Positions 1,274 to 35,467 of a DNA stretch of 64,000 bases are shown here, in pieces. The notes under the pieces were generated by a model, which worked only from the letters and a program-made list of their open reading frames with translations, was not told the DNA's origin and did no database searches. The stretch is from an uncultured Planctomycetales bacterium. Lineage in GTDB: Bacteria; Omnitrophota; Gorgyraeia; Gygaellales; Profunditerraquicolaceae. How positions within the stretch are numbered: the first letter of the stretch is position 1; every line of letters begins with the position of its first letter. Location: NCBI GenBank assembly GCA_964545575.1, contig CAZJFL010000001.1, positions 69,878-133,877 on the forward strand, read 5' to 3'. The position numbers and the translations under genes were made by a program.

Positions 1274-2608
1274 TTATAAATCCTTACTCTTTAAACCCAG
1301 CTCTGCGATTGCCTGCTCAGGGCTACTGGTATATTTACGGCAGAACCTGGTGACCTGCTGTATGTCGGTAATGCCCTTTTCTGAAAGCGCATCCACCAAT
1401 CTCACCCTTCTCTTTAATTCCTCGACCAGCTCTCTGGAAGATCTGCCGCTTATCTGGGAGAGCCTGTCCCTGTAGGTGCCGCCCCCTCCCGGCTCAAGGA
1501 ATTCGTGCTTGGGCAAATCATAAGACCAGAGAGAGCCCAATAAAACCGTGTTTTTTTCCATCCCGCCGGTCTCAGCCAGCTCTCCTACCACGCGCTTGAT
1601 CTGGCCGTCTACTTTAAACCGGCGCATAACCACAAAGACATCGATTAAGTTTATCAGCGCGTTGGGTATATTCATCGGTTCGTTTTCCAGGCGCATTACC
1701 GTCTCTCTGGGTGTGGATGCGTGCAGGGTCCCCATGCAATACTTGCCGATATTCATGGCGGTCATCAAATCCTGGGCTTCTCTGCCCCTGACCTCTCCCA
1801 CAATCACTCTATCCGGGCGCATGCGTAAAGAGTTCTTGACTAAATCCGCCAGCGTCGTTTCCTCATCACTCTCCAGGCGCGAACAATTCTCTTCCAAATC
1901 GGTATTTAACTCTAAGGTGTCCTCAATAACCACTATCCGTTCTTTTGCGGGGATAAAACTAAAAAGCGCGTTTAATAAAGTGGTCTTGCCCGAACCCGGG
2001 CCTCCGGAGATGATAATATTTGCCGGCTTGACATTAAGGCCTTCTACGTAAAGCCAAAGCTGCGCGGCTAATTCAGGGTTAAGCGCGCCGTTATTCACCA
2101 GCTCGATGATGCTTAAGGGTTTTTCTTTGGCGCGGGTGATGGTAATCTGCGGCCCGAAGGGGGAATACACGATGTTGGCTCTTCCCTTTACTTCGGCAAG
2201 CTCGACGTTATTTATCTTTTTGATATCTTTCCTCCCCGAGAAAAAAACCAGCTTTTTGATAAAGAGGTCCAACTCTTCGCGGGAAGAAAACTTTTTATCC
2301 GTAGTGATCATGCCTACCCTGGTCTTGTGCACATAGATAGGAGAAAGATAGTTGATCATAATATCTTCCACTTCCGGGTCGGAAAGAAACTCCTCGATGA
2401 TCCCGTAGGAAAGAAACTCGTTAAAAAACTGCTCTAACTCCAGCCCCTTGCATTTATGGATAAACCTCTGGCAGACGGGAGAATTATAGTATTCCAAAAA
2501 AACCTGAAAGATGACCTCACGTTTGCAGGTCAGGTCTTGCAGCAGAAAAAGCTTACCCAATAGCTTATCCAGTATATCGTTTTCAATAGCGATTCTTTCT
2601 TTATCCAT
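1274..2608 (-). CDS. Type II/IV secretion system ATPase (TadA/CpaF/FlaI-like)
   Basis: 444 aa with Walker A GGPGSGKTTLLNALFSF, Asp box VIEDTLEL and His box GTLHAS, the architecture of the GspE/VirB11/FlaI family. Its stop lies 2 nt upstream of the dnaX start, consistent with co-transcription. Confidence 0.8.
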   Translation of the reverse strand: MDKERIAIENDILDKLLGKLFLLQDLTCKREVIFQVFLEYYNSPVCQRFIHKCKGLELEQFFNEFLSYGIIEEFLSDPEVEDIMINYLSPIYVHKTRVGMITTDKKFSSREELDLFIKKLVFFSGRKDIKKINNVELAEVKGRANIVYSPFGPQITITRAKEKPLSIIELVNNGALNPELAAQLWLYVEGLNVKPANIIISGGPGSGKTTLLNALFSFIPAKERIVVIEDTLELNTDLEENCSRLESDEETTLADLVKNSLRMRPDRVIVGEVRGREAQDLMTAMNIGKYCMGTLHASTPRETVMRLENEPMNIPNALINLIDVFVVMRRFKVDGQIKRVVGELAETGGMEKNTVLLGSLWSYDLPKHEFLEPGGGGTYRDRLSQISGRSSRELVEELKRRVRLVDALSEKGITDIQQVTRFCRKYTSSPEQAIAELGLKSKDL

Positions 2609-2622
2609 ATTTTCTCCTTATT

Positions 2623-2686
2623 GGGCATGCACTCCGCTCGCTAAACCGCTTGTCGCGGTTTGCCCTTCGGGCCGCTCGCTTGAGTG
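2623..2686 (-). ncRNA. Candidate structured RNA element, copy A, next to tRNA-Ser(GCT)
   Basis: GCACTC-CGCTCGCT-[hairpin AAACCGC/GCGGTTT]-[GCCC-UUCG-GGGC]-CGCTCGCT-GAGTGC. It shares its architecture with the copy at 6590-6646 but shows compensatory changes in the stems. Strand of function is uncertain. Confidence 0.4.
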
Positions 2687-2721
2687 CCGAAAAAATTTTG
2701 TTTGTCTCAAAATTTTTTCGG
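2687..2721 (-). terminator. Perfect AT-rich hairpin abutting and overlapping the tRNA-Ser(GCT) 3' end
   Basis: CCGAAAAAATTTTG-tttgtctc-AAAATTTTTTCGG, a 13-bp stem. A similar hairpin lies downstream of tRNA-Ser(TGA). Confidence 0.4.
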
Positions 2722-2808
2722 AGAGGCAGGGATTCGAACCCTGGGGGCCAGTTACCCAGCCCAATTGCTTAGCAGGCAACTCCGTTAAGCCAGCTCCGGC
2801 ACCTCTCC
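2719..2808 (-). tRNA. tRNA-Ser(GCU), class II with long variable arm
   Basis: Manual fold of GGAGAGGTGCCGGAGCTGGCTTAACGGAGTTGCCTGCTAAGCAAT...GGTTCGAATCCCTGCCTCTCCG gives a 7-bp acceptor stem, 3-bp D stem, anticodon loop CUGCUAA and a T arm GGTTCGAATCC. CCA is not encoded. Confidence 0.85.
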
Positions 2809-2877
2809 AAATTCAATGAGCGCACAATTTACGGAACGAAGTGAATGTAAATTGTATGCGCGAATTAATCCCGCACG

Positions 2878-3333
2878 CTATTTATTACGTTTGCGGGAAA
2901 AAAATTCCGTTAATAAAGAGCTGCATTCCTTTTCTAAAATCCCGCCCTTTACTTTAATGCGATGATTTAATTTCTTATGATTTATAATATTCACTACAGA
3001 GCCGCATGCGCCTGTTTTGGGGTCCTTTGCGCCGTAATACAGGTTCTTAATGCGCGCCAGAACAGAAGCACCGGCGCACATACTGCACGGTTCAATTGTA
3101 ACATAAAGACAGCATCCGGACAACCATTTGCTCCCCAGGTAATTAGTCGCAGAAGTCAAAGTCAACATCTCGGCGTGTGCGGTAGGATCCTTCAGGGATT
3201 CAACTTGATTATATCCGCGGGCGATAATCCTATCTTTATAAACTACCACCGCTCCGACGGGAACTTCATCTTTTTCAAAGGCTTTACGGGCTTCCTTTAA
3301 AGCCTCCTGCATAAAACGGGTATGTTTTAGCAT
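2878..3333 (-). CDS. tadA: tRNA-specific adenosine(34) deaminase
   Basis: 151 aa with the CDA-fold zinc motifs HAEMLTL and IEPCSMCAGA. Its size matches TadA, and it sits immediately downstream of its substrate tRNA-Arg(ACG). Confidence 0.85.
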   Translation of the reverse strand: MLKHTRFMQEALKEARKAFEKDEVPVGAVVVYKDRIIARGYNQVESLKDPTAHAEMLTLTSATNYLGSKWLSGCCLYVTIEPCSMCAGASVLARIKNLYYGAKDPKTGACGSVVNIINHKKLNHRIKVKGGILEKECSSLLTEFFSRKRNK

Positions 3334-3345
3334 TGCCTAAATAAG

Positions 3346-3419
3346 TGCGCCTGGCTGGGATCGAACCAGCAACAACCAGCTCCGTAGGCTGATGCTCTAT
3401 CCAATTGAGCTACAGGCGC
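3346..3419 (-). tRNA. tRNA-Arg(ACG)
   Basis: GCGCCTGTAGCTCAATTGGATAGAGCATCAGCCTACGGAGCTGG...GGTTCGATCCCAGCCAGGCGCA, with anticodon loop CUACGGA. This is the A34-to-I editing substrate of TadA. Confidence 0.85.
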
Positions 3420-3465
3420 GTTAATCTTTTTGCCTCCTGTAGCGAATCCGCCAACGTTCTGTGGC

Positions 3466-3481
3466 AGAGAGCTACAGGCGC
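3466..3481 (-). repeat. 15-16 nt exact copy of the tRNA-Arg(ACG) 5' end (gagctacaggcgcgt), about 47 nt upstream of the tRNA
   Basis: An exact match to tRNA positions 1-14 plus one flanking base, sitting in an imperfect hairpin CCTGTAGC...GCTACAGG. Confidence 0.6.
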
Positions 3482-3486
3482 GTATC

Positions 3487-3798
3487 TTAAAGCTGAAGGA
3501 TAATTTCAAAGAGGAACTTCATATCCAGAATCGCAAGCAAGATCAAAATAGGTCCTGCTATCAGGTGGTAATTAAATAACAGGTTATCTAGCCAGGTTAT
3601 ATTGGCGTCCAAGGGGACAAGCGCAGGCGTATGAAACACCTCCAGTTTTAAGCGCTTGTCTATCTTATAATAAATCTCCAGCGAGAAAGTAAAAATCATG
3701 CTTATGATACAGATTAATCCGTAAGTAACGAAAACTAAGGCGCTTAAAAACCACCCCAATTCATCGACAGTCATGAAATTGATATTGGTATTAAACAT
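3487..3798 (-). CDS. Small hydrophobic membrane protein, hypothetical
   Basis: 103-aa ORF with two predicted TM stretches (LGWFLSALVFVTYGLICIISMIF; LIAGPILILLAILDM). No recognisable family. Confidence 0.35.
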   Translation of the reverse strand: MFNTNINFMTVDELGWFLSALVFVTYGLICIISMIFTFSLEIYYKIDKRLKLEVFHTPALVPLDANITWLDNLLFNYHLIAGPILILLAILDMKFLFEIILQL

Positions 3799-3856
3799 TT
3801 TTGCGTTCCTTTCTCGTCACTACGCCCATTGTCGGACAAATAATCCTAGTACTAAT

Positions 3857-3993
<137 letters not shown>

Positions 3994-4003
3994 CAGATAT
4001 GAA

Positions 4004-5005
4004 TTAGACTTTTGAATTCTTATAAGACCTAAATCTCTCTATATGTTTACTATTATGACTACCGATTATTTGCATATATTTGTTAACTTCTTTTCTATCA
4101 TAAATGAAAATATGCCTTCCTCCGGCAGTTTTGCAATTTAAACTAAACCTCAGAAACATTTTATACGCCGAATTCAAAAGAGCTTTTGAATGACTCGTAA
4201 AACACAAACCCATATGCCTGTATTTAATTCCCTTGGTAGTGTGATTATGGAAATAAATACCTCCATCGGTATCCATTAAGCCCCTCAGGCAACTTTTTAC
4301 AAACTCGTTATCCTTAAAAATCCATTGCGGCACATCTGTGCCATTTAACATCTTGTTCCCTTTCTTCATACCGCAATTTATCAGAAAAAGAACGAGGTTT
4401 TTACTCGATACTGTAACAACAATGGTATTTTTATCCCTGACTGTGACAGTAGAGGTTATCTTAAATAAATCAGTGACAATTTTTTTGATGAAATAGGCAT
4501 AATCCCTGTCAGTTTTATTATTATAGATTCTGACTTGATGTTCATTTATTGAGCCATCGCCTAAAAGAATCCCAATAAATTCTGCTAACAAAGAAGATCT
4601 TCGAGGATAAATAATATTTTTCCTTAACTTAAAACCTACCTTTTTAGCGAATTCCGGGTCATTCCGAAATTTCAAAGCAGAGACCATACCCCCTTTTCTT
4701 CTGCCTTCTACTGTACCAAGACGCCCGTATAATTCATTCCGCCTTAAAGCCCCCAACCTTGCCGCGCTCTTAATATTCCAATCATCCGGGAGAACTTCTA
4801 TTCTTGGAACAGAAATTCTTAGTTTCTTCTTTAATGATTGAAGAGAAACGTAATTCATTTGATATTTATCCCTTCGCCAGTCAAATAAAGTTCGCTTATC
4901 CACCTTGCAAATTCCGGCTAAATTATGCCAATCAAGATTATTTTCTTTCTTAATCTTCCCCAGAAAACTTCTCTGTTTATTTTCTAGAAATTTTACTCTT
5001 GGCAT
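4004..5005 (-). CDS. Double-motif LAGLIDADG homing endonuclease, free-standing
   Basis: Two LAGLIDADG motifs (LAEFIGILLGDGSI and LRGLMDTDGGIYF) about 100 aa apart, plus an N-terminal basic HTH-like region. The true start is MPRVKF (ATG at 5003-5005). The track ORF 4004..5191 is artificially extended by reading through tRNA-Ser(CGA) and the 59-bp repeat. Confidence 0.75.
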   Translation of the reverse strand: MPRVKFLENKQRSFLGKIKKENNLDWHNLAGICKVDKRTLFDWRRDKYQMNYVSLQSLKKKLRISVPRIEVLPDDWNIKSAARLGALRRNELYGRLGTVEGRRKGGMVSALKFRNDPEFAKKVGFKLRKNIIYPRRSSLLAEFIGILLGDGSINEHQVRIYNNKTDRDYAYFIKKIVTDLFKITSTVTVRDKNTIVVTVSSKNLVLFLINCGMKKGNKMLNGTDVPQWIFKDNEFVKSCLRGLMDTDGGIYFHNHTTKGIKYRHMGLCFTSHSKALLNSAYKMFLRFSLNCKTAGGRHIFIYDRKEVNKYMQIIGSHNSKHIERFRSYKNSKV

Positions 5006-5048
5006 AATATAATTCCAACCGCTCTGCCACCTCTCCAAGAATTTTATT

Positions 5049-5107
5049 GTATGGCGGCGCCGAAGCCAGAGGCTTCGGCATCCGCCATGTTTTTCAAGAG
5101 AAAAACA
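5049..5107 (-). repeat. 59-bp perfect direct repeat, copy 2
   Basis: Identical to 3857-3915 and positioned immediately 3' of tRNA-Ser(CGA). Confidence 0.85.
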
Positions 5108-5196
5108 TGGCGGAGAGTGGAGGATTTGAACCTCCGTACCTCTTACGAGGTAACGCGCTTTCGAGGCGCGCGCTTTCAACCACTCAGCCAACTCTC
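5107..5196 (-). tRNA. tRNA-Ser(CGA), class II
   Basis: GGAGAGTTGGCTGAGTGGTTGAAAGCGCGCGCCTCGAAAGCGCG-[variable arm]-GGAGGTTCAAATCCTCCACTCTCCGCCA, with anticodon loop CUCGAAA. CCA is encoded. Confidence 0.85.
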
Positions 5197-5381
5197 CAAA
5201 ATTTAAACGGACCCGTTTTGTTTACTTAAGCCGCTTCTCGAAGACCGCAAGCGCCGAATTCATATTGTCGGGGCTTCGATGAAATCCCCCATAGTCGGCA
5301 TTATCATCTTCAATCGCGCAGTCTGCAATACCAGCGTATTTACATATCCATTCGACCGCTTCACGCATGCCGTCGATACCA

Positions 5382-6461
5382 TCACCCTCCGGGTTCGGGT
5401 CCTGTTTTTACATAGGTTCTTTTGCCAAATGAATTACTACGGCCATCAAGACAAGTTCCGCAAACCGGTAAGCTTTTTCTATCCGCATGTATTTTTCTTC
5501 TAAGATTTTGGTATTTTCCATTTCTCCAGATATCCCGTAAATCGTCTCGGAAAATATTTCCCATTATATGAAAAGATGCTAGATCGCTACAGCAAGGAGT
5601 TACATCGCCGTTAGAATTGATGACCGTGTAATACTCGATAGAACTACAGGAATTCGGTACTGCGACCTCGTTTACAAAAAGTCCGTCTTTTTCAACGTAG
5701 TTTCTATTAAACGAGGTATCGCGGGGAAAAATCTCTTTTGCTACTTTCTGAAAGTCAGAGCCATCAAAACCGATACCGACCGCTTTTTCCCTATATACAT
5801 CAGCATGCAGTTTTCCGGACATCTCTAACATCATTTGGCGTTGATGTTCGTTATGTTTCATGACAATAAATTGTAATTCGACTATCGGCTTTCTAGATTT
5901 CAGCTCTTTTTTTGCTTGATAGATTAATTCAAATCCTTTTATAACTGCGCTAAAATCAGCTCCTTTTCGGTATTTGTTATAGGTTTCGTGATCCGCGCCA
6001 TCAAGGCAGATAATTAAGTAATATAGGCCGCTTTTAACAACATATTTACAATATTCGATATCCTTAAAAAAAGTACCGTTCGTACATATGCGGATTCTAA
6101 TTCCAGATTCAGTGGCGTATCTAACCATTTGTAGAATATCTTTATGAAGGAAAGGTTCGCCAAGATTCCATAAATCTATATGGGCAATATAAGATCTAAC
6201 TTCATCAACGATTTTTTTAAATTCCTGCAGGCTCATTGATCTTGCTAGCCGATTTAATTTATTCGTACCTGTGGGGCATGCGATACAGCGGAGGTTACAA
6301 AGATTTGTCGGCTCTATAACAAGATAAAAAGGCAGAGGGGAAAATAGCGACTTTCCCGTTAATCCTTTTAATAATTTATATAAAATAATGTCAAAACGTC
6401 TTTTCTTGATTATTAAACAAAGCGCTTCTATTTTTTCAGTGAGGTATTTCATGAAATTCAT
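5382..6461 (-). CDS. Radical SAM protein with C-terminal SPASM/twitch domain
   Basis: CNLRCIACP (CxxxCxxC) in the N-terminal part and a Cys-rich C-terminal region (TPCCSDLASFH...CGTCLDG). A 47-codon continuation in the +1 frame immediately after the stop suggests a possible frameshift or a small downstream ORF. Confidence 0.8.
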   Translation of the reverse strand: MNFMKYLTEKIEALCLIIKKRRFDIILYKLLKGLTGKSLFSPLPFYLVIEPTNLCNLRCIACPTGTNKLNRLARSMSLQEFKKIVDEVRSYIAHIDLWNLGEPFLHKDILQMVRYATESGIRIRICTNGTFFKDIEYCKYVVKSGLYYLIICLDGADHETYNKYRKGADFSAVIKGFELIYQAKKELKSRKPIVELQFIVMKHNEHQRQMMLEMSGKLHADVYREKAVGIGFDGSDFQKVAKEIFPRDTSFNRNYVEKDGLFVNEVAVPNSCSSIEYYTVINSNGDVTPCCSDLASFHIMGNIFRDDLRDIWRNGKYQNLRRKIHADRKSLPVCGTCLDGRSNSFGKRTYVKTGPEPGG

Positions 6462-6514
6462 TATTTTGTTTGAAAGTTTATTTCTATTATTTTACCATTA
6501 TTTCGGTAGCCCTA

Positions 6515-6556
6515 CGATTTCGAGGCGCGCGCTTTCAACCACTCAGCCAACTTTCC
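6515..6556 (-). repeat. Diverged copy (40/42) of the 5' half of tRNA-Ser(CGA), positions 1 to about 42, upstream of the radical-SAM gene
   Basis: ggaaagttggctgagtggttgaaagcgcgcgcctcgaaatcg versus tRNA ggagagttggctgagtggttgaaagcgcgcgcctcgaaagcg. Similarity ends after the anticodon loop. Confidence 0.75.
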
Positions 6557-6589
6557 AAAGCTATAAATTTTCCTTATCAGAATGTATTG

Positions 6590-6646
6590 TGGTGCTAGCA
6601 CCACGCTCGCTATTTTGCTTGTTGCAAAATTACGCTCGCTTTGGTG
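6590..6646 (-). ncRNA. Candidate structured RNA element, copy B, next to tRNA-Ser(TGA)
   Basis: GGTGC...CGCTCGCT-[hairpin ATTTTGC/GCAAAAT]-CGCTCGCT-TTGGTGCC. It has the same architecture as 2623-2686, with covarying stems. Confidence 0.4.
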
Positions 6647-6681
6647 CCGAAAATTTTTTCTTTATCAGAAAAAATTTTCGG
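6647..6681 (-). terminator. AT-rich perfect hairpin abutting the tRNA-Ser(TGA) 3' end
   Basis: CCGAAAATTTTTTC-tttatcag-AAAAAATTTTCGG. Confidence 0.4.
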
Positions 6682-6765
6682 AGGCGGAAGGATTCGAACC
6701 CTCGATGGGCGTAAACCCACAACGGTTTTCAAGACCGCCGCATTCAACCGCTCTGCCACGCCTCC
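6679..6765 (-). tRNA. tRNA-Ser(TGA), class II
   Basis: GGAGGCGTGGCAGAGCGGTTGAATGCGGCGGTCTTGAAAACCGT-[variable arm]-GAGGGTTCGAATCCTTCCGCCTCCG, with anticodon loop CUUGAAA. Confidence 0.85.
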
Positions 6766-6770
6766 CTCTC

Positions 6771-7448
6771 TTACCTTAAAAATAATTGCCTAAAGATAAG
6801 GTAAAATATATCGCTTGCCGCCCGGAAAGAACCCGAATAAAAATTGACCAACGAAAACTCTTTAAAAATAAAGCTCAGGCCCAGCCCAAGCAACGCAATA
6901 TTAACCAGGTACAGGAAAGAAAAACCAAAGAGATAGTTGGCCTTTAAAAAATCCCCCTGCTTCAGGCGCAGAGATTTTGCGCTGAATACAAGGTGCAGGG
7001 CGATGCTAAAGCCAAAAAAGAAAATAAAATAATTTATTAGATCCGCCGATTTAAAAATAGCCGCGGCCGGCGCATAGAGGACAAACAGGATGATGGTATA
7101 GACGGGTAATAGATAGGGCGCGAATTTTACCAAGGGATGAAAAAACTTAAATATTGCCTCTACCAGCTTCTGCCCCCTGGAATAAACTGTTACCGGCTCC
7201 CAAAGAAACAGATAAACCGCAAGAAACGCGATAACACCGCCCCAAAAATACCACTGAAGTTTAAAATCTATAAGATCAAGCTCCTTGATAAAGGCAACCG
7301 ACAGTGAATAAACAAAAGGCAGCAGGCAAAGCCCCAGAATGAACTTTACGATGCCGAAAACGCGGCCGGAGAAACCGGACATTCTAGGCACGGGAGCGCT
7401 GATTTCCACTTTGGGAATTTCTTTTTTAAGGGATTCTTTCTTTTTCAC
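6771..7448 (-). CDS. Polytopic integral membrane protein, hypothetical
   Basis: 225 aa with about 6 hydrophobic helices. No recognisable motif. Confidence 0.5.
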   Translation of the reverse strand: MKKKESLKKEIPKVEISAPVPRMSGFSGRVFGIVKFILGLCLLPFVYSLSVAFIKELDLIDFKLQWYFWGGVIAFLAVYLFLWEPVTVYSRGQKLVEAIFKFFHPLVKFAPYLLPVYTIILFVLYAPAAAIFKSADLINYFIFFFGFSIALHLVFSAKSLRLKQGDFLKANYLFGFSFLYLVNIALLGLGLSFIFKEFSLVNFYSGSFRAASDIFYLIFRQLFLR

Positions 7449-7457
7449 AATAAATTT

Positions 7458-8726
7458 CTATCCTATCCTCTCTTGGCCGTCAAGATATGCCTTTAAAACC
7501 TCAGGGACAATAACTGATCCGTCTTTCTGCTGATAATTTTCTAAGATAGCTACCAGGGTGCGCGCCAAAGCCACTCCGGAGCCGTTTAAAGTGTGCACAA
7601 AATCTAATTTTTTAGTATCTTTTCTTCTGAACTTTATATTTGCCCTGCGGGCCTGAAAACTTTCAAAATTACTGCAGCTGGAAACCTCCAGCCACTTATC
7701 TATTCCCGGGGCATAGGCCTCTAAATCATAACATTTGCTCGCGGCAAAACTTAAATCTTGCGTCGGCAAAACCGCTACCCTGTATGGAAGGCCAAGAAGT
7801 TGCAGTACCTCTTCGGCATCTGCGACCAGTTTTTCCAATTCGTCATATGAACTTTCCGGTTTCACAAACTTGACCAGTTCTACCTTATCAAACTGGTGCA
7901 CCCTGATCAGGCCTTTGGTGTCTTTGCCGTAGGAACCTGCTTCCCGGCGGAAGCAGGCGGTATAGGCGGTATAATAAACCGGCAACTTATCTTCATCCAG
8001 TATCTCATCGCGGAATATATTGGTTAGCGGGACTTCGGCGGTAGGAATAAGAAACAGATCATCATCTTTTAAGCGGTACATGTCTTCTTCCAGTTTCGGG
8101 AGCTGGCCGGTTCCGGTCATCGAGGCGCGGTTGACTAAAAACGGCGGGGATACCTCGGTGTAACCGTGTTTTTTGATATGTAAATCCAGCATAAAATTAA
8201 TCAGCGCCCGCTCCAGCCTGGCGCCCCAGCCTTTATAAAGTATGAAGTTTGAGCCGCTAATCTTTGCCGCCCGGTTAAAATCGATGATATCCAGATGCTG
8301 GCTGATTTCTATGTGGGTAGCCGGTTTAAAATCGATTCTTTTAGGTTCGCCCCAGGAACGCACTATTTCTTTCTTTGTCGGGTCTCCGACAGGAACAGAT
8401 GCGTGCGCTATATTCGGGATAACTAAAAGCAGCTCGGACAGCTGGATATCCAGCTTTTTGACTTCGTCTTCCAGCTTACCGATCTCCTGCGAAACCTTCT
8501 TCATGGAAAATATTTTATCCTTGGCGTCTTTCTTAGCCTTTAACAAAGCGCTGATCTCATCATTGGCTTTGTTTTGCCTGGCGCGGTAATCTTCTAATTC
8601 GGAAAGGCTCCTGCGGCGCAGATCGTCTAATTTAAGCAAGCTATCCAGGTCCAGCTTTAAATTGCGATTCTCCAAAGACTGCCTTACCAGATCCGCGTTT
8701 TCTCGGATAAACTTTAGGTCTAACAT
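7458..8726 (-). CDS. serS: Seryl-tRNA synthetase
   Basis: 422 aa with an N-terminal coiled-coil tRNA-binding arm and class II aaRS motifs (FRREAGS...[12 protein letters not shown]...[10 protein letters not shown]). It lies next to four tRNA-Ser genes. Confidence 0.95.
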
Positions 8727-8752
8727 AGTTACCTCTCTTTAGCTGTCTTCTG

Positions 8753-10213
8753 CTATCCCTTAATAACGCACAATGGCCGCATACGACAGACGCGTTTGGA
8801 GATTCCTGCGCGATGCACCACATCTACTACGTCGTTAACATCCTTGTAGGCCTGGGGTGCTTCTTCTACGAGTGTTCCTCTACCTGAGGCCTTAACCATT
8901 ATACCCTTGGATTCCAATTCTTTCAATAAGGTAGCTTCATTTATCGACCTGCTTGCGGCGGTGCGGGATTTTAACCTGCCTGCGCCATGGCAGGTCGAAC
9001 CGAAAGTTTCTTCCATGGCTTTTTGGGTACCCACTAAGAGATAAGAATTTCTCCCCATATCTCCGGGTATAATCACCGGCTGGCCTATTTTTTTATACCT
9101 TTCAGGCAACGCCGGATGCCCCGGGCCAAAAGCGCGGGTGGCGCCTTTACGGTGGACGCAGAGCATTTTTTCTTTTCCTTCAATAGTATATTTTTCGATC
9201 TTGGCGATATTGTGCGCGACGTCGTAAATCAAGAACATCCCTAATTTCTGCCAAGAGATAGCGAATATTTTTTCAAAAACCTTACGGGTAAGATGCATTA
9301 AACACTGCCGGTTTGCCCAGGCATAGTTTGCCGCGCACTTCATCGCTCCCAGATACGCCTTACCTTCGGCAGAATTAACCGGTGCGCAGGCCAGCTGCCT
9401 GTCCGGGACATTGATCTGGTATTTCTCGAGGCAATGTACCATATCTCTGGTATAGTCCTCGCAAATCTGATAGCCCAATCCCCGTGAGCCGGAATGAATC
9501 ATCAGCGTAATCTGCCCAAGATTTAAACCTAATTCATCAGTTATATCCCTATCGTATAATTGATCGATGGCCTGCACTTCCAGGAAGTGATTCCCTGAAC
9601 CTAAGGTGCCGGACTGGGCCTTACCTCTTTCGTAAGCCCGCTGGGAGACCGTATCCGGATCAGCCCCCTGGATGGCGCCGTTCTCTTCAGTGCATTCCAG
9701 GTCATCTTCCGTGCCGTAGCCTTTTTCTACCGCCCACTTTGAACCTTTAAGTAAAATCTCCTTTTCTTCTCTGGCGCTTACCCTGATATCGCCTTTAGAG
9801 CCAACTCCTGCAGGAATATCATTAAATAAAGCGTAAACCAGGTCTTTTATTTTATCTTTTATATCTTCAAATTGAAGGTTGGTTTTAAGCATGCGCACGC
9901 CGCAATTTATGTCAAAACCGACCCCTCCGGGAGAAATTACGCCTCCGTTTTCGATATCGGTCGCCGCCACCCCTCCAATGGGAAAACCATAGCCCCAGTG
10001 GATATCGGGCATAGCCATTGATGCATTTACTATGCCGGGCAAAAACGCCACGTTAGCTACCTGCTCCGCTGCCTTATCCTGCCTGATATCTTTCAATAAT
10101 TTTTCATCGGCATAGATAATCCCGGGCACGCGCATCCCCCTTTTATAGCTTTTAGGTATCCGCCAGCGGAAATCGTCAATTTTCTCTAAAGGTACGGCCG
10201 GGTTTTCAGACAT
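8753..10213 (-). CDS. rtcB: RNA-splicing ligase RtcB (3'-phosphate/5'-OH RNA ligase)
   Basis: 486 aa matching the RtcB signature regions (MPDIHWGYGFPIGG, GFDINCGVRML, SGSRGLG, HNIAK, HRKGATRA). Confidence 0.95.
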   Translation of the reverse strand: MSENPAVPLEKIDDFRWRIPKSYKRGMRVPGIIYADEKLLKDIRQDKAAEQVANVAFLPGIVNASMAMPDIHWGYGFPIGGVAATDIENGGVISPGGVGFDINCGVRMLKTNLQFEDIKDKIKDLVYALFNDIPAGVGSKGDIRVSAREEKEILLKGSKWAVEKGYGTEDDLECTEENGAIQGADPDTVSQRAYERGKAQSGTLGSGNHFLEVQAIDQLYDRDITDELGLNLGQITLMIHSGSRGLGYQICEDYTRDMVHCLEKYQINVPDRQLACAPVNSAEGKAYLGAMKCAANYAWANRQCLMHLTRKVFEKIFAISWQKLGMFLIYDVAHNIAKIEKYTIEGKEKMLCVHRKGATRAFGPGHPALPERYKKIGQPVIIPGDMGRNSYLLVGTQKAMEETFGSTCHGAGRLKSRTAASRSINEATLLKELESKGIMVKASGRGTLVEEAPQAYKDVNDVVDVVHRAGISKRVCRMRPLCVIKG

Positions 10214-10622
10214 CCAAAATCACCTCTGCCTGCCAGCCGCCTGCCTTCTTTGCGATTTTTAATTGATGGTAAGTGGCGGCTTTTATCTCGGTGTTGACTT
10301 TATAGTTATTGATATTGCTTGCCACGGCAACTGCCTCCAGGCGCTTCTGGTTTATTTTTTTTATGCGTAAATCCTCAAAAATCAGGCCCTTAGCCGAAGA
10401 TAAAGATATTAATTCATTCAGCCAGTTAATCAGGAGCTCCTCTAGATTATCCGCTTCCTGGACTATCGCCAAATTATGCGGCTTTGTATTTTTAATTTTC
10501 TTTTTCTCTGCGATGATCTGGAATATGGCGAGGCCGGCGTTCCTGAACAGGTCTTTTAAAGAACCGCCTTTTACCCTGATGCCTATATCTGCGGTATGGT
10601 CGATAAGTTCGTATTTAACCAC
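10206..10622 (-). CDS. Archease (RtcB activator)
   Basis: 138 aa beginning MVKYELIDHTADIGIRVKG, the conserved archease N-terminal HTAD motif. It overlaps rtcB by 8 nt, consistent with an operon. Confidence 0.85.
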   Translation of the reverse strand: MVKYELIDHTADIGIRVKGGSLKDLFRNAGLAIFQIIAEKKKIKNTKPHNLAIVQEADNLEELLINWLNELISLSSAKGLIFEDLRIKKINQKRLEAVAVASNINNYKVNTEIKAATYHQLKIAKKAGGWQAEVILDV

Positions 10623-10637
10623 GCAGTTATAATTTTA

Positions 10638-10713
10638 TGGTGGGCCATGCGGGAGTCGAACCTGCGACCTTGACATTAAGAGTGTCCTGCTCTACCAATT
10701 GAGCTAATGGCCC
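10638..10713 (-). tRNA. tRNA-Lys(CUU)
   Basis: GGGCCATTAGCTCAATTGGTAGAGCAGGACACTCTTAATGTC...GGTTCGACTCCCGCATGGCCCACCA, with anticodon loop CUCUUAA. CCA is encoded. Confidence 0.8.
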
Positions 10714-10776
10714 GGATTTGATTTTAGATTTATTATTTTACCCTAAAACAGGATGCTTTGCAAGATAAGGATTTAG

Positions 10777-10850
10777 TGCGCCTGGCAGGAATTGAACCTG
10801 CAACGCCTAGCTCCGAAGGCTAGCGCTCTATCCAATTGAGCTACAGGCGC
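10777..10850 (-). tRNA. tRNA-Arg(UCG)
   Basis: GCGCCTGTAGCTCAATTGGATAGAGCGCTAGCCTTCGGAGCTAG...GGTTCAATTCCTGCCAGGCGCA. It shares its 5' half with tRNA-Arg(ACG) at 3346. Confidence 0.85.
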
Positions 10851-10851
10851 A

Positions 10852-11571
10852 TTACAGAATCTCGCACTTATCTCCGATGATTTCCTTGATTTTTTGAAGT
10901 TTACTCTTACCTACCGGCAAGATACCGGGTTCGCTGGTAGCGCGTACGGGGGAGTTCAACTGTACTTTATCCGGGTTTATTTTATCTATGGCTTCTTTTA
11001 ATTTTCTGATCTCGGGCAGGACGTCATTTACGCCTTTTACCAGCATCACCTCCAGCCAAATCTGGCCTGCAAACTCTTTTCTTAAGGCTATCAGGCCGTC
11101 TATGATATTCTTTATTTTTATGCCGCTTAAAGGCCGGTCTATTTTTTCAAATACTTCTTGAGTTGCTGCATCCAAAGAGGGGACTATTAAACCTGCACCT
11201 GATAATTCCTGCCTGACCCCGGGCGCCCCCAACAATGAAGAGTTAGTCAATACCGCTACGGGAAGAGAAGTAATTTTTTTTATCTCCGTAATTAACCTGC
11301 CTATCTTATCATGTAAAAGCGGCTCGCCCGAACCGGATAGGGTAACATAATTTAACCTGCTTGCTTCCGAAGGGTTGTTTAGAAGCCATAGCTTAAATTC
11401 AGCCAGGATCTCCTCGGGCGGAATATACTCTTTACGTTCGCCGGTCTTATCGCTGGTCTTGCCCAGCTGACAGTAAATACAGTCGAAATTGCAGGCCTTT
11501 GAGGGAGTGAGGGTCATCCCTAAAGAAAACCCCAGCCTCCGTGAATTTACCGGACCGTACAGGTATAGCAT
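10852..11571 (-). CDS. Radical SAM domain protein (COG0731/PflX-like Fe-S oxidoreductase)
   Basis: YGPVNSRRLGFSLGMTL...CNFDCIYCQLG is a CxxxCxxC motif in a characteristic N-terminal context. Exact function unknown. Confidence 0.7.
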   Translation of the reverse strand: MLYLYGPVNSRRLGFSLGMTLTPSKACNFDCIYCQLGKTSDKTGERKEYIPPEEILAEFKLWLLNNPSEASRLNYVTLSGSGEPLLHDKIGRLITEIKKITSLPVAVLTNSSLLGAPGVRQELSGAGLIVPSLDAATQEVFEKIDRPLSGIKIKNIIDGLIALRKEFAGQIWLEVMLVKGVNDVLPEIRKLKEAIDKINPDKVQLNSPVRATSEPGILPVGKSKLQKIKEIIGDKCEIL

Positions 11572-35287: not shown

Positions 35288-35359
35288 TTTAGTCTCCTCC
35301 CTTAACCCTTAATAAATAGGAAACCCTTATGCCAAATACATAAGGGTTATACACATTCA

Positions 35360-35455
35360 CTCCTCCTTTTCCTACGCTGGTATTATCCAGATCAGGTTAT
35401 CAGGGTCACCCCGCTTAAGCGGGGACTCTCAGGCCGTTATCACGACCTCCCCATA
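35360..35455 (-). promoter_or_regulatory. TPP (THI-box) riboswitch in the thi4 leader
   Basis: On the minus strand: GGGGUGACCCUGAUAACCUGAUCUGGAUAAUACCAGCGUAGGAA plus an upstream CUGAGAG, the two conserved THI-element blocks. Confidence 0.75.
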
Positions 35456-35467
35456 ATCTTATTTATT

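Follow-up and report, generated by a model that had tools for sequence, protein, structure and literature searches.

Between positions 2718 and 10850, the 64-kb stretch of DNA analyzed here (the window), from an uncultured Omnitrophota bacterium, carries a block in which tRNA genes alternate with genes for seryl-tRNA synthetase (serS), the tRNA deaminase TadA, the RNA ligase RtcB and its activator, archease. We consider it likely that this region is a conserved block that has received two foreign inserts of low GC content at tRNA-Ser genes, one of which, carrying a LAGLIDADG endonuclease gene, came in by homing, and that RtcB and archease belong to the scaffold and are not mobile. The original prediction, made from the sequence alone, had read the clustering as a sign of coordinated tRNA maturation or repair, possibly linked to a homing endonuclease and to tRNA fragment duplications in the same array. 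The parts of this system are known; we find a conserved, lineage-specific arrangement, not a special repair machine, and a homing cassette that is apparently undescribed. tRNA genes were called with ARAGORN, which was also run with its intron option, and with Rfam; proteins were assigned with Pfam, NCBIfam, and alignments to solved structures. By its seryl-tRNA synthetase, the window falls in Candidatus Omnitrophota. The comparison set consisted of 80 species-representative loci around serS, which were annotated; loci are designated by an L and a number. All window features given by coordinates below lie on the minus strand.

A LAGLIDADG endonuclease gene tied to tRNA-Ser genes

The homing endonuclease noticed in the original prediction is real. 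A free-standing gene for a single-chain LAGLIDADG homing endonuclease was found at 4004..5005, matching Pfam LAGLIDADG_3 in two stretches. Its start is the ATG at 5005, which gives a protein of 333 amino acids (aa), equal in length to its homologs, with an N-terminal helical region of about 125 aa followed by two LAGLIDADG domains. The catalytic motifs LGDG (G149-D150-G151) and DTDG (T246-D247-G248) were invariant in 43 homologs. In an AlphaFold model of the protein (predicted local distance difference test score, 89.2), the C-terminal 200 residues superposed on single-chain LAGLIDADG endonucleases. The best fold match was I-Tsp061I (2dch; E = 1.7e-10; template modeling score of 0.77 on the target), intein endonucleases came next, and LAGLIDADG endonucleases, the bI3 maturase, WhiA, and intein-associated endonucleases were among the top 50 matches in the Protein Data Bank. 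At the sequence level, too, the protein matched intein endonuclease domains. Residence in an intron or intein was not encountered, since Rfam found no group I intron in the window and Pfam no Hint/intein domain. The GC content of the gene was 34.6%, 12 points lower than that of 32 other open reading frames (ORFs) (46.6 ± 2.3%; minimum, 40.6%). The sequence from rtcB to the endonuclease gene was 100% identical across four independent assemblies; therefore, this arrangement is not a misassembly. Other assemblies of the same strain stop in the endonuclease gene or soon after it.

Homologs with 71, 56, and 52% identity were all encoded directly upstream of tRNA-Ser(GGA), in contexts that were otherwise different. 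A metagenome scan with the single endonuclease protein gave no matches, and a profile of the homologs was required. With the profile, 80 metagenome loci with endonuclease relatives at 33 to 52% identity were obtained, 77 of which had downstream sequence and could be evaluated. A co-oriented tRNA-Ser gene was the next feature, within 200 nucleotides (nt) downstream, in 68 of these 77 loci (GGA, 25; GCU, 20; CGA, 19; UGA, 4). Within the 80 serS loci, the endonuclease family occupied 1 of 95 tRNA-Ser genes and no ortholog stood at the same place; L008 has a single LAGLIDADG gene (40% identity), which precedes another tRNA-Ser gene. The family was nearly absent from viral contigs, where one close match was located at a host-prophage junction beside tRNA-Ser(GGA). 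Homing elements are marked by the combination of strict site association, sporadic distribution, and foreign composition, and the gene is apparently a mobile, tRNA-Ser-specific homing element whose product is predicted to cleave DNA. In literature searches, no earlier account of LAGLIDADG genes adjoining tRNA-Ser genes in bacteria was found, and the element is apparently undescribed. A serine recombinase gene (L081, 5271-6188) or a tyrosine integrase gene (L083, 5268-6296) was found directly downstream of endonuclease-linked tRNA-Ser(GGA), and one "viral" contig (L171) begins at the tRNA-Ser(GGA) gene that follows the endonuclease, indicating that the same tRNA gene is also an integration site for integrase-type elements.

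Displaced tRNA stubs and a second foreign insert

A 21-nt tRNA-Ser 5' stub, comprising the acceptor strand and D-arm and ending in the D-loop, is located at 5016..5036, 10 nt before the endonuclease ATG. This stub was identical at 20 of 21 positions to the tRNA-Ser(GGA) gene of L015, a locus free of the endonuclease, versus 15 of 21 for the adjacent intact tRNA gene. Across the family, stub and adjacent tRNA share the acceptor strand and differ in the D-arm (2 to 9 of 13 positions match), with a mean identity of 11.6 of 21; in the window, too, the intact tRNA-Ser(GGA) beside the endonuclease has a D-arm type other than that of the stub. Among 46 nonredundant endonuclease loci, 14 had an upstream sequence agreeing with the 5' end of a tRNA-Ser gene at 17 or more of 21 nt, compared with 0 of 128 control windows. 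In distant family members, the endonuclease ATG lies inside the stub (GGAGATATGGCTGAG...), and the ORF can reach 44 nt into the intact tRNA gene. A TATAAT-like box is often present between stub and ATG, about 17 nt after the D-loop TTGA (L112, L134, L136, L138, L139, L162, and others).

The other filled gap in the window contains a radical SAM/SPASM gene (5382..6461; Pfam Radical_SAM plus SPASM), a foreign insert between a second stub and the intact tRNA-Ser(CGA) gene. The stub (6515..6559; 45 nt) is the 5' half of tRNA-Ser(CGA), nt 1 to 38 plus a 4-nt leader, and lies upstream of the insert. It was 96% identical to the intact gene (5156-5200), with a core matching at 35 of 35 positions, and it ends at the anticodon loop. 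The radical SAM/SPASM gene had a GC content of 36.9% (32.5% at third codon positions), compared with the 46.6 ± 2.3% of the other ORFs, and no ortholog was found in the 80 related loci. Between it and tRNA-Ser(CGA) is an orphan reading frame of about 60 codons (5224..5400), possibly a gene remnant, which had no homolog in the related loci and matched only itself in protein databases. The two filled gaps in the window are thus both GC outliers, and both share one layout, in which a displaced 5' tRNA stub is followed by a cargo gene and then by an intact tRNA gene. The tRNA fragments of the original prediction were recovered as the 45-nt half, the 21-nt stub, and a 13-nt stub described below; these "fragment duplications" are scars of DNA insertion.

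In the mechanism that we propose, the endonuclease would cut the D-arm coding region of a naive tRNA-Ser gene, the target being taken from the end-points of the stubs. The break would be repaired from the endonuclease-bearing allele, bringing in the endonuclease gene and a resistant tRNA segment, using the stub with its upstream flank for homology on the left and the tRNA body for homology on the right. The old 5' end would be left behind as a stub, and the neighboring tRNA would keep a different, presumably uncuttable, D-arm. The stub would afterwards serve as left homology arm and expression signal; the position of the TATAAT-like box suggests that it supplies the -35 element of the endonuclease promoter. 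The radical SAM/SPASM gene would have entered by Campbell-type or break-induced recombination, again by way of tRNA homology, and one crossover between a circular DNA with a tRNA 5' fragment and the chromosomal tRNA gene would yield the structure seen.

The tRNA block and its conservation in Omnitrophota

Seven tRNA genes were found in the window by ARAGORN, all of them in the block, and no further tRNA was called elsewhere in the window. Rfam agreed on the identities, which were also those read by eye in the original prediction. As that prediction had held, none contained an intron, even when the ARAGORN intron option was used, and Rfam detected neither a group I intron nor a T-box in the window. 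At gathering and permissive thresholds, Rfam returned only the tRNAs plus a distant thiamine pyrophosphate riboswitch (35352-35463; 60.6 bits) that is unrelated to the block. The block is headed by a gene for a 239-aa radical SAM protein (10852..11571; Pfam Radical_SAM), which stops 1 nt short of tRNA-Arg(UCG) (10776..10850; Rfam, 70.6 bits) and is found upstream of that tRNA gene in 16 loci. Assignment of this protein to a tRNA-modification family failed, with just weak MoaA/TYW1/viperin-like matches. PADLOC placed the proteins of the cluster in no defense system and reported only a generic radical SAM likeness to viperins. The next gene, tRNA-Lys(CUU) (10638..10713), is 15 nt upstream of the archease gene, a position kept in 24 related loci.

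Archease (10206..10622) matched Pfam Archease over its full length with 129 bits and NCBIfam NF001617 with 109.6 bits, under the cutoff of 126. Its gene overlaps rtcB by 8 nt, and the overlapping pair between tRNA genes that had been predicted was thus borne out. RtcB, the 3'-phosphate/5'-OH RNA ligase (8753..10213; Pfam RtcB, 590 bits), contains no intein. It aligned over its full length with the tRNA-splicing ligase RtcB 7lfq (E = 1.5e-174) and with the PH1602 chain 1uc2 (E = 2.3e-174), and, relative to 7lfq, all of the metal-binding and guanylylation motifs are kept (DINCGVR, GSGNHF, HSGSRGLG, HRKGATRA, and STCHGAGR). The protein resembles the solved Pyrococcus PH1602 and Thermus TTHA1785 type and matches the exteins of the model for intein-containing RtcB. 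The serS gene (7458..8726) starts 26 nt after rtcB and scored 524 bits against the equivalog TIGR00414 (cutoff, 302); the enzyme (SerRS) is of the bacterial type, with a Pfam Seryl_tRNA_N arm and a tRNA-synt_2b class II core. Between serS and tRNA-Ser(UGA) (6679..6765; CCA not encoded) lies the gene for a conserved 225-aa protein (6771..7448), which reads as a membrane protein from its sequence alone and had no match in Pfam, NCBIfam, or PADLOC.

Beyond these genes come tRNA-Ser(CGA) (5108..5197) and tRNA-Ser(GGA) (3906..3993), both with an encoded CCA; the latter is intact and begins 10 nt past the endonuclease stop codon. They are followed by a gene for a 103-aa protein (3487..3798), which has no family match in Pfam or NCBIfam and has homologs at the same place in three loci (L017, L032, and L109), by tRNA-Arg(ACG) (3345..3419), the canonical TadA substrate, and by tadA (2878..3333). 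TadA, the tRNA adenosine(34) deaminase, scored 174 bits against the equivalog NF008113 (cutoff, 150), and its zinc-site motifs HAE (AHAEM) and PCxxC (EPCSMCAGA) are readable in the sequence. The adjacency of tadA and tRNA-Arg(ACG) had been predicted correctly; the gap between them is 11 to 12 nt, not 13 nt. With tRNA-Ser(GCU) (2718..2809), the block has the complete GCU, GGA, CGA, and UGA set of tRNA-Ser genes co-localized with serS, as had been noted, and this co-localization is conserved in relatives.

The comparison of synteny that the original prediction had called for showed that the clustering is shared with relatives. The order radical SAM protein, tRNA-Arg(UCG), tRNA-Lys(CUU), archease, rtcB, serS, 225-aa protein, tRNA-Ser(UGA), tRNA-Ser(CGA), tRNA-Ser(GGA), 103-aa protein (which may be missing), tRNA-Arg(ACG), tadA, and tRNA-Ser(GCU) is repeated across dozens of Omnitrophota genomes whose SerRS identities are 61 to 81%. 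RtcB was followed by SerRS in 46 loci, and rtcB was directly upstream of serS in 45 of the 68 loci with enough sequence. SerRS was followed by the 225-aa protein in 53 loci, and this protein by tRNA-Ser(UGA) in 42; in 36 of 57 loci, the 2 kb downstream of serS included a tRNA-Ser gene. The order is therefore not due to chance; it is a vertically inherited, conserved trait of one Omnitrophota lineage. Some of the arrangement predates this lineage, and the description of the clustering as uncommon in bacteria was only partly right: the archease-rtcB operon has been described elsewhere (PMC3973293), tRNA-Ser(GCU) and tRNA-Arg(ACG) are linked in Escherichia coli, and L080, a locus not labeled Omnitrophota, holds serS, four tRNA-Ser genes, and tadA together. 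Literature searches returned no description of this Omnitrophota cluster.

Gaps between tRNA genes ranged among relatives from 7 to 8 nt up to 7.5 kb, and the minimal values indicate that the array was originally compact. The variable gaps of relatives are filled by unrelated co-oriented ordinary genes (TPR, GGDEF, permease, histidine kinase, U32 peptidase, and helicase). A recurrent set of mobile-element genes in these gaps was considered and rejected, as the gap genes of relatives are unrelated and chromosomal. In the window, the intergenic gaps from 11571 to 6679 are 1 to 62 nt, and because none exceeds 62 nt, this part of the block is likely cotranscribed as a single transcript that is then processed. 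RNase P and RNase Z would release the tRNAs from the common transcript; enzymes and tRNA substrates would be coexpressed, and the enzymes would act in trans in their ordinary roles, namely, the serylation of tRNA-Ser, the editing of A34 to I34 in tRNA-Arg(ACG), and the ligation of 3'-P to 5'-OH RNA ends for repair.

Two variations on the block were seen in relatives. In relatives of higher GC content (55 to 64%; L095, L107, L114, L116, and L122), the syntenic tRNA-Arg has the anticodon GCG and not ACG, and it is still followed by a TadA homolog (42 to 49% identity), whose editing target there is then in question. In seven loci (L017, L031, L038, L039, L043, L048, and L054), archease and rtcB are separated by a gene of 350 to 550 aa; Pfam DUF4139 was found in the three products tested (plus DUF4140 in L054), and BLAST grouped six of the seven together, with weak LSM-like matches. 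This spacer gene may be an accessory of the ligase system.

Structured trailers after tRNA-Ser genes

A structured element of about 95 nt was found after tRNA-Ser genes, with nine copies in the window and the comparison loci (two in the window, three in L025, and one each in L005, L015, L017, and L034). It consists of a first hairpin, which takes in the final 3 nt of the tRNA, and then GCACTC-AAGCGAGCG-hairpin-AGCGAGCG-GAGTGC, where the enclosed hairpin has a GACAA loop and AAGCGAGCG and AGCGAGCG form a symmetric internal loop in the outer stem. Seven copies start 29 to 32 nt after the tRNA-Ser gene, and an eighth, the tandem second copy in L025, starts 117 nt after it. In one window copy (6598..6681; minimum free energy [MFE], -37.5 kcal/mol; z = -7.0), the first hairpin uses the last 3 nt of the tRNA and is followed by GCACCA-AAGCGAGCG-hairpin-AGCGAGCG-TGGTGC. 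The other (2629..2721; MFE, -42.6 kcal/mol; z = -5.4) lies just outside the region that the original prediction had singled out. Compensatory changes were present in 20 of 27 pairs, and 90% of cells pair versus 33 to 51% in slid controls; the z values for the predicted stability of the trailer structures ranged from -5 to -12. The element belongs to no Rfam family, and a search of 2600-6800 gave only tRNA and subthreshold noise. The trailer hairpins contain no T-tracts. The element may be a terminator, a processing site, or a recombination site, and we flag it as a covarying, unclassified RNA or DNA structure.

A different trailer, a pair of very stable hairpins (TCCGCCA...TGGCGGA plus GCCGAAGCC...GGCTTCGGC), is present at 5059..5114 and again at 3857..3912 (MFE, -43.1 kcal/mol; z = -12.1). 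These copies are part of an 82-nt direct repeat (3857-3938 and 5059-5140; 93% identical) that spans the 3' ends of tRNA-Ser(GGA) and tRNA-Ser(CGA) together with the two hairpins and brackets the stub-endonuclease-tRNA unit; the 56-nt trailer part is identical in both copies. Upstream of tRNA-Arg(ACG), the 13-nt tRNA-Arg 5' stub (3469-3481) and its complement form a hairpin (3430..3481; MFE, -26.7 kcal/mol; z = -4.1) that encloses an inner TCTGCCA...TGGCGGA hairpin. Three or four similar stub hairpins are present upstream of tRNA-Lys in L017.

Selfish elements in relatives and evaluation of alternatives

Group I introns were present in the tRNA-Lys(UUU) genes directly upstream of archease in two relatives (L044, 6178-6533; L053, 7514-7874), in the tRNA-Asn gene of L048 (17315-17611), and at another site in L008 (19929-20240). 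The intron-bearing tRNA genes of relatives were missed by default tRNA calling. In-frame inserts of about 1.5 kb were found in rtcB, one each in L021, L022, L044, L047 to L049, and L064 and two in L001. Those of L021, L044, and L001 are inteins by Pfam, one of which, in L001, includes a LAGLIDADG domain. The neighborhood attracts selfish elements; this is a phenomenon at the DNA level and does not link them to the RNA ligase activity of RtcB. Moreover, relatives contain nested tRNA-Arg loci in which an intact gene is bracketed by 5' and 3' halves broken in the anticodon loop (L025, 5995-6520; L033, 3333-3691; L008, 15439-15690 and 4200-4385; L035, 1952-2330; L027, 3872-4090). The flanks of the halves are conserved and complementary (TCCCTCG...CGAGGGG and TCCCGAG...CTCGGGA); in L033, the 3' halves form tandem 90-nt repeats, and no protein gene is associated with the nested loci. 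Since many of the halves are decayed, we tentatively take them to be what was left after tRNA-bearing cassettes inserted repeatedly or after att-type recombination.

Several observations weigh against a conserved block with two inserts, one of them a homing element. The end-points of the stubs are the only source for the endonuclease target site, and some family members (L081, L085) have no recognizable stub. Comparison of L085, which has the endonuclease, with L002, which does not, suggests insertion about 20 nt upstream of the tRNA gene and not inside it; the pair is just 77 to 79% identical, and exact borders could not be defined from it. L025 carries the tRNA-Ser(GGA) allele of the window without the endonuclease, so that allele and endonuclease are not strictly coupled. 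The homing model does not account for the identical 56-nt trailer copies on either side of the endonuclease unit, and no nuclease or recombinase accompanies the radical SAM/SPASM insert. For the block itself, cotranscription is deduced from gap lengths, and a scan of the region for consensus promoters and terminators did no better than on shuffled sequence; the selective reason for archease-rtcB staying among tRNA genes is likewise a matter of inference.

tRNA-Lys and tRNA-Arg are classic targets of anticodon nucleases (PrrC and colicin D), which counts in favor of the block being a dedicated maturation and repair module in which RtcB-archease heals cluster tRNAs cut by ribotoxins or by damage linked to the endonuclease or the fragments. 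The placement of archease-rtcB between tRNA-Lys/Arg and serS in 45 of 68 loci, the complete catalytic motifs of RtcB, and the standing of archease-rtcB as a known tRNA-splicing operon (PMC3973293) point the same way. However, LAGLIDADG enzymes cut DNA and not RNA, nearly all relatives that keep rtcB are without the endonuclease, no toxin or anticodon nuclease was found among the proteins checked, and conservation of order alone cannot tell function from inheritance. As for an RtcB substrate, the window contains no intron-containing or split tRNA, and the tRNA introns of relatives are self-splicing group I introns; no window tRNA requires a ligase, and the coordinated repair that the original prediction had suggested is not called for. 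Nor was support found for its proposed link between RtcB-archease and the endonuclease or fragments, given an endonuclease that is tied to tRNA-Ser DNA (68/77), sporadic (1/95), and foreign and fragments that are scars. RtcB might repair ribotoxin-cleaved tRNA-Lys or tRNA-Arg, although nothing seen here favors this, and a dedicated repair module is on the whole unlikely. It is highly improbable that the halves belong to an RNA-level system of the archaeal kind for split or intron-containing tRNAs, in which they would be transcribed, paired by their flanks, cut, and joined by RtcB. In its favor, the bracketing halves of tRNA-Arg in relatives match and have complementary flanks, with variants that retain pairing via G-U; L025 has two half-pairs with compensating acceptor and anticodon stems, and RtcB and archease are encoded next door. 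Yet an intact tRNA of the same identity is always in the middle, making splicing unneeded, several halves are decayed or mismatched (L027, L035, and L008), the window holds 5' stubs only and no 3' partners, and the tRNA introns present in the clade are group I introns. By eye, the junctions of the nested halves in relatives are plain helix, with no bulge-helix-bulge drawable, and no splicing endonuclease was seen, a genome-wide search for EndA not having been made. Given that every such locus keeps an intact tRNA and that many halves have decayed, we rejected a bulge-helix-bulge reading of the nested tRNA-Arg halves as the chief explanation. Literature searches returned no description of bacterial split tRNAs.

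The remaining alternatives concern the inserts. They could be remnants of integrase-driven, tRNA-targeting islands with the endonuclease as a passenger, as the recombinase and integrase genes of L081 and L083, the "viral" contig that starts at such a tRNA, and the likeness of the tandem 3' halves after tRNA-Arg in relatives to att-site arrays would suggest. We regard this as quite unlikely: integrase elements normally leave 3' fragments downstream, whereas the window has 5' stubs upstream, no integrase or recombinase was found among the cluster ORFs checked, the adjacency of endonuclease and tRNA-Ser in 68 of 77 loci holds whatever lies further downstream, and the variable-gap genes of relatives are ordinary chromosomal genes. 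Domestication of the LAGLIDADG protein, either as a DNA-binding regulator of tRNA-Ser genes like WhiA or as a maturase-like factor acting on them, would fit with an association that holds down to 33% protein identity, with the extra N-terminal helical domain, with the presence of WhiA and the bI3 maturase among the fold matches, and with distant members whose ORF begins in the stub and ends in the tRNA gene. It is nevertheless very unlikely, in that the invariance of both catalytic aspartates in 43 homologs, the sporadic distribution, the foreign composition, and the presence at four different isoacceptor genes all typify a selfish element and not a housekeeping factor.

The preferred reading, a conserved block with two foreign inserts, can be widened into one joint reading, which we offer tentatively and at somewhat less than even chances: the LAGLIDADG-tRNA-Ser elements would be an undescribed class of homing element that enters an essential RNA gene with no intron, the tRNA pieces would be portable recombination sites, and the array would be a platform for cassette exchange. 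The cassette may carry or coconvert a replacement tRNA segment with an altered D-arm, and the displaced 5' stub may be kept as left homology arm and promoter/start region. The same logic may have produced both the nested tRNA-Arg halves of relatives and the radical SAM/SPASM insert, with its order of stub, cargo, and tRNA. In a remoter extension, archease-RtcB may be kept because such traffic, or ribotoxins, break these tRNAs.

Significance and comparison with known systems

These findings give a picture of how a block of tRNA and tRNA-enzyme genes evolves in a poorly known phylum, with a stable scaffold whose inter-tRNA spaces take up foreign genes. If active, the tRNA-Ser LAGLIDADG family would be a set of natural meganucleases with related but diversified targets, the genes of the four isoacceptors, and a selfish element that copes with entry into an essential gene through replacement instead of splicing. 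The findings also carry a caution, in that adjacency of RtcB to tRNA genes in bacteria is not evidence of tRNA splicing.

The archease-rtcB operon of archaea and diverse bacteria is a described arrangement (Desai et al. 2014, PMC3973293). The window pair resembles it in that archease is directly upstream of rtcB and overlaps it and in that the catalytic residues are all there, and differs in its place between tRNA genes and serS, which is conserved in the Omnitrophota lineage, and in that the window has no intron-containing substrate. The RtcA and RtcR partners of the E. coli Rtc system are not among the neighboring genes in the window. The archaeal system for split or intron-containing tRNAs (EndA plus RtcB) likewise has tRNA halves in the genome and RtcB-archease encoded, whereas the window belongs to a bacterium with group I tRNA introns, its tRNAs are intact, and no bulge-helix-bulge was found. 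In the E. coli serV-argVYZQ operon, tRNA-Ser(GCU) adjoins four co-oriented tRNA-Arg(ACG) genes, as these two tRNAs are neighbors in the window. That 5-kb stretch has neither tadA nor serS, and the other Ser isoacceptor genes of E. coli are presumably located elsewhere; the window, in contrast, has tadA between the two tRNAs and four Ser isoacceptors plus serS within 6 kb.

I-Tsp061I (2dch) and the TliVMA intein (7qsu) share with the window endonuclease the single-chain LAGLIDADG fold and two motifs with conserved acidic residues; the window gene differs in standing outside any intron or intein and in encoding the extra N-terminal helical region of about 125 aa. Integrative elements that target tRNA genes are similar in that they insert at a tRNA gene, keep it intact with a replacement segment, and displace a partial copy to the other end. 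In those elements, however, an integrase acts, the 3' part is replaced, and the 3' fragment lies downstream, whereas the window has no integrase and its 5' piece lies upstream. Reportedly, SegB cleaves naive genomes in the region of their tRNA genes and by gene conversion takes adjoining tRNA DNA with it. It is a free-standing homing endonuclease in the tRNA gene cluster of phage T4 (PMC13096335), and like the window gene, its gene lies among tRNA genes with neither an intron nor an intein. SegB is a GIY-YIG enzyme of a phage, whereas the window enzyme is a LAGLIDADG protein encoded on a bacterial chromosome. Unlike SegB, it is strictly associated with tRNA genes for a single amino acid, and a 5' tRNA stub remains after its insertion.

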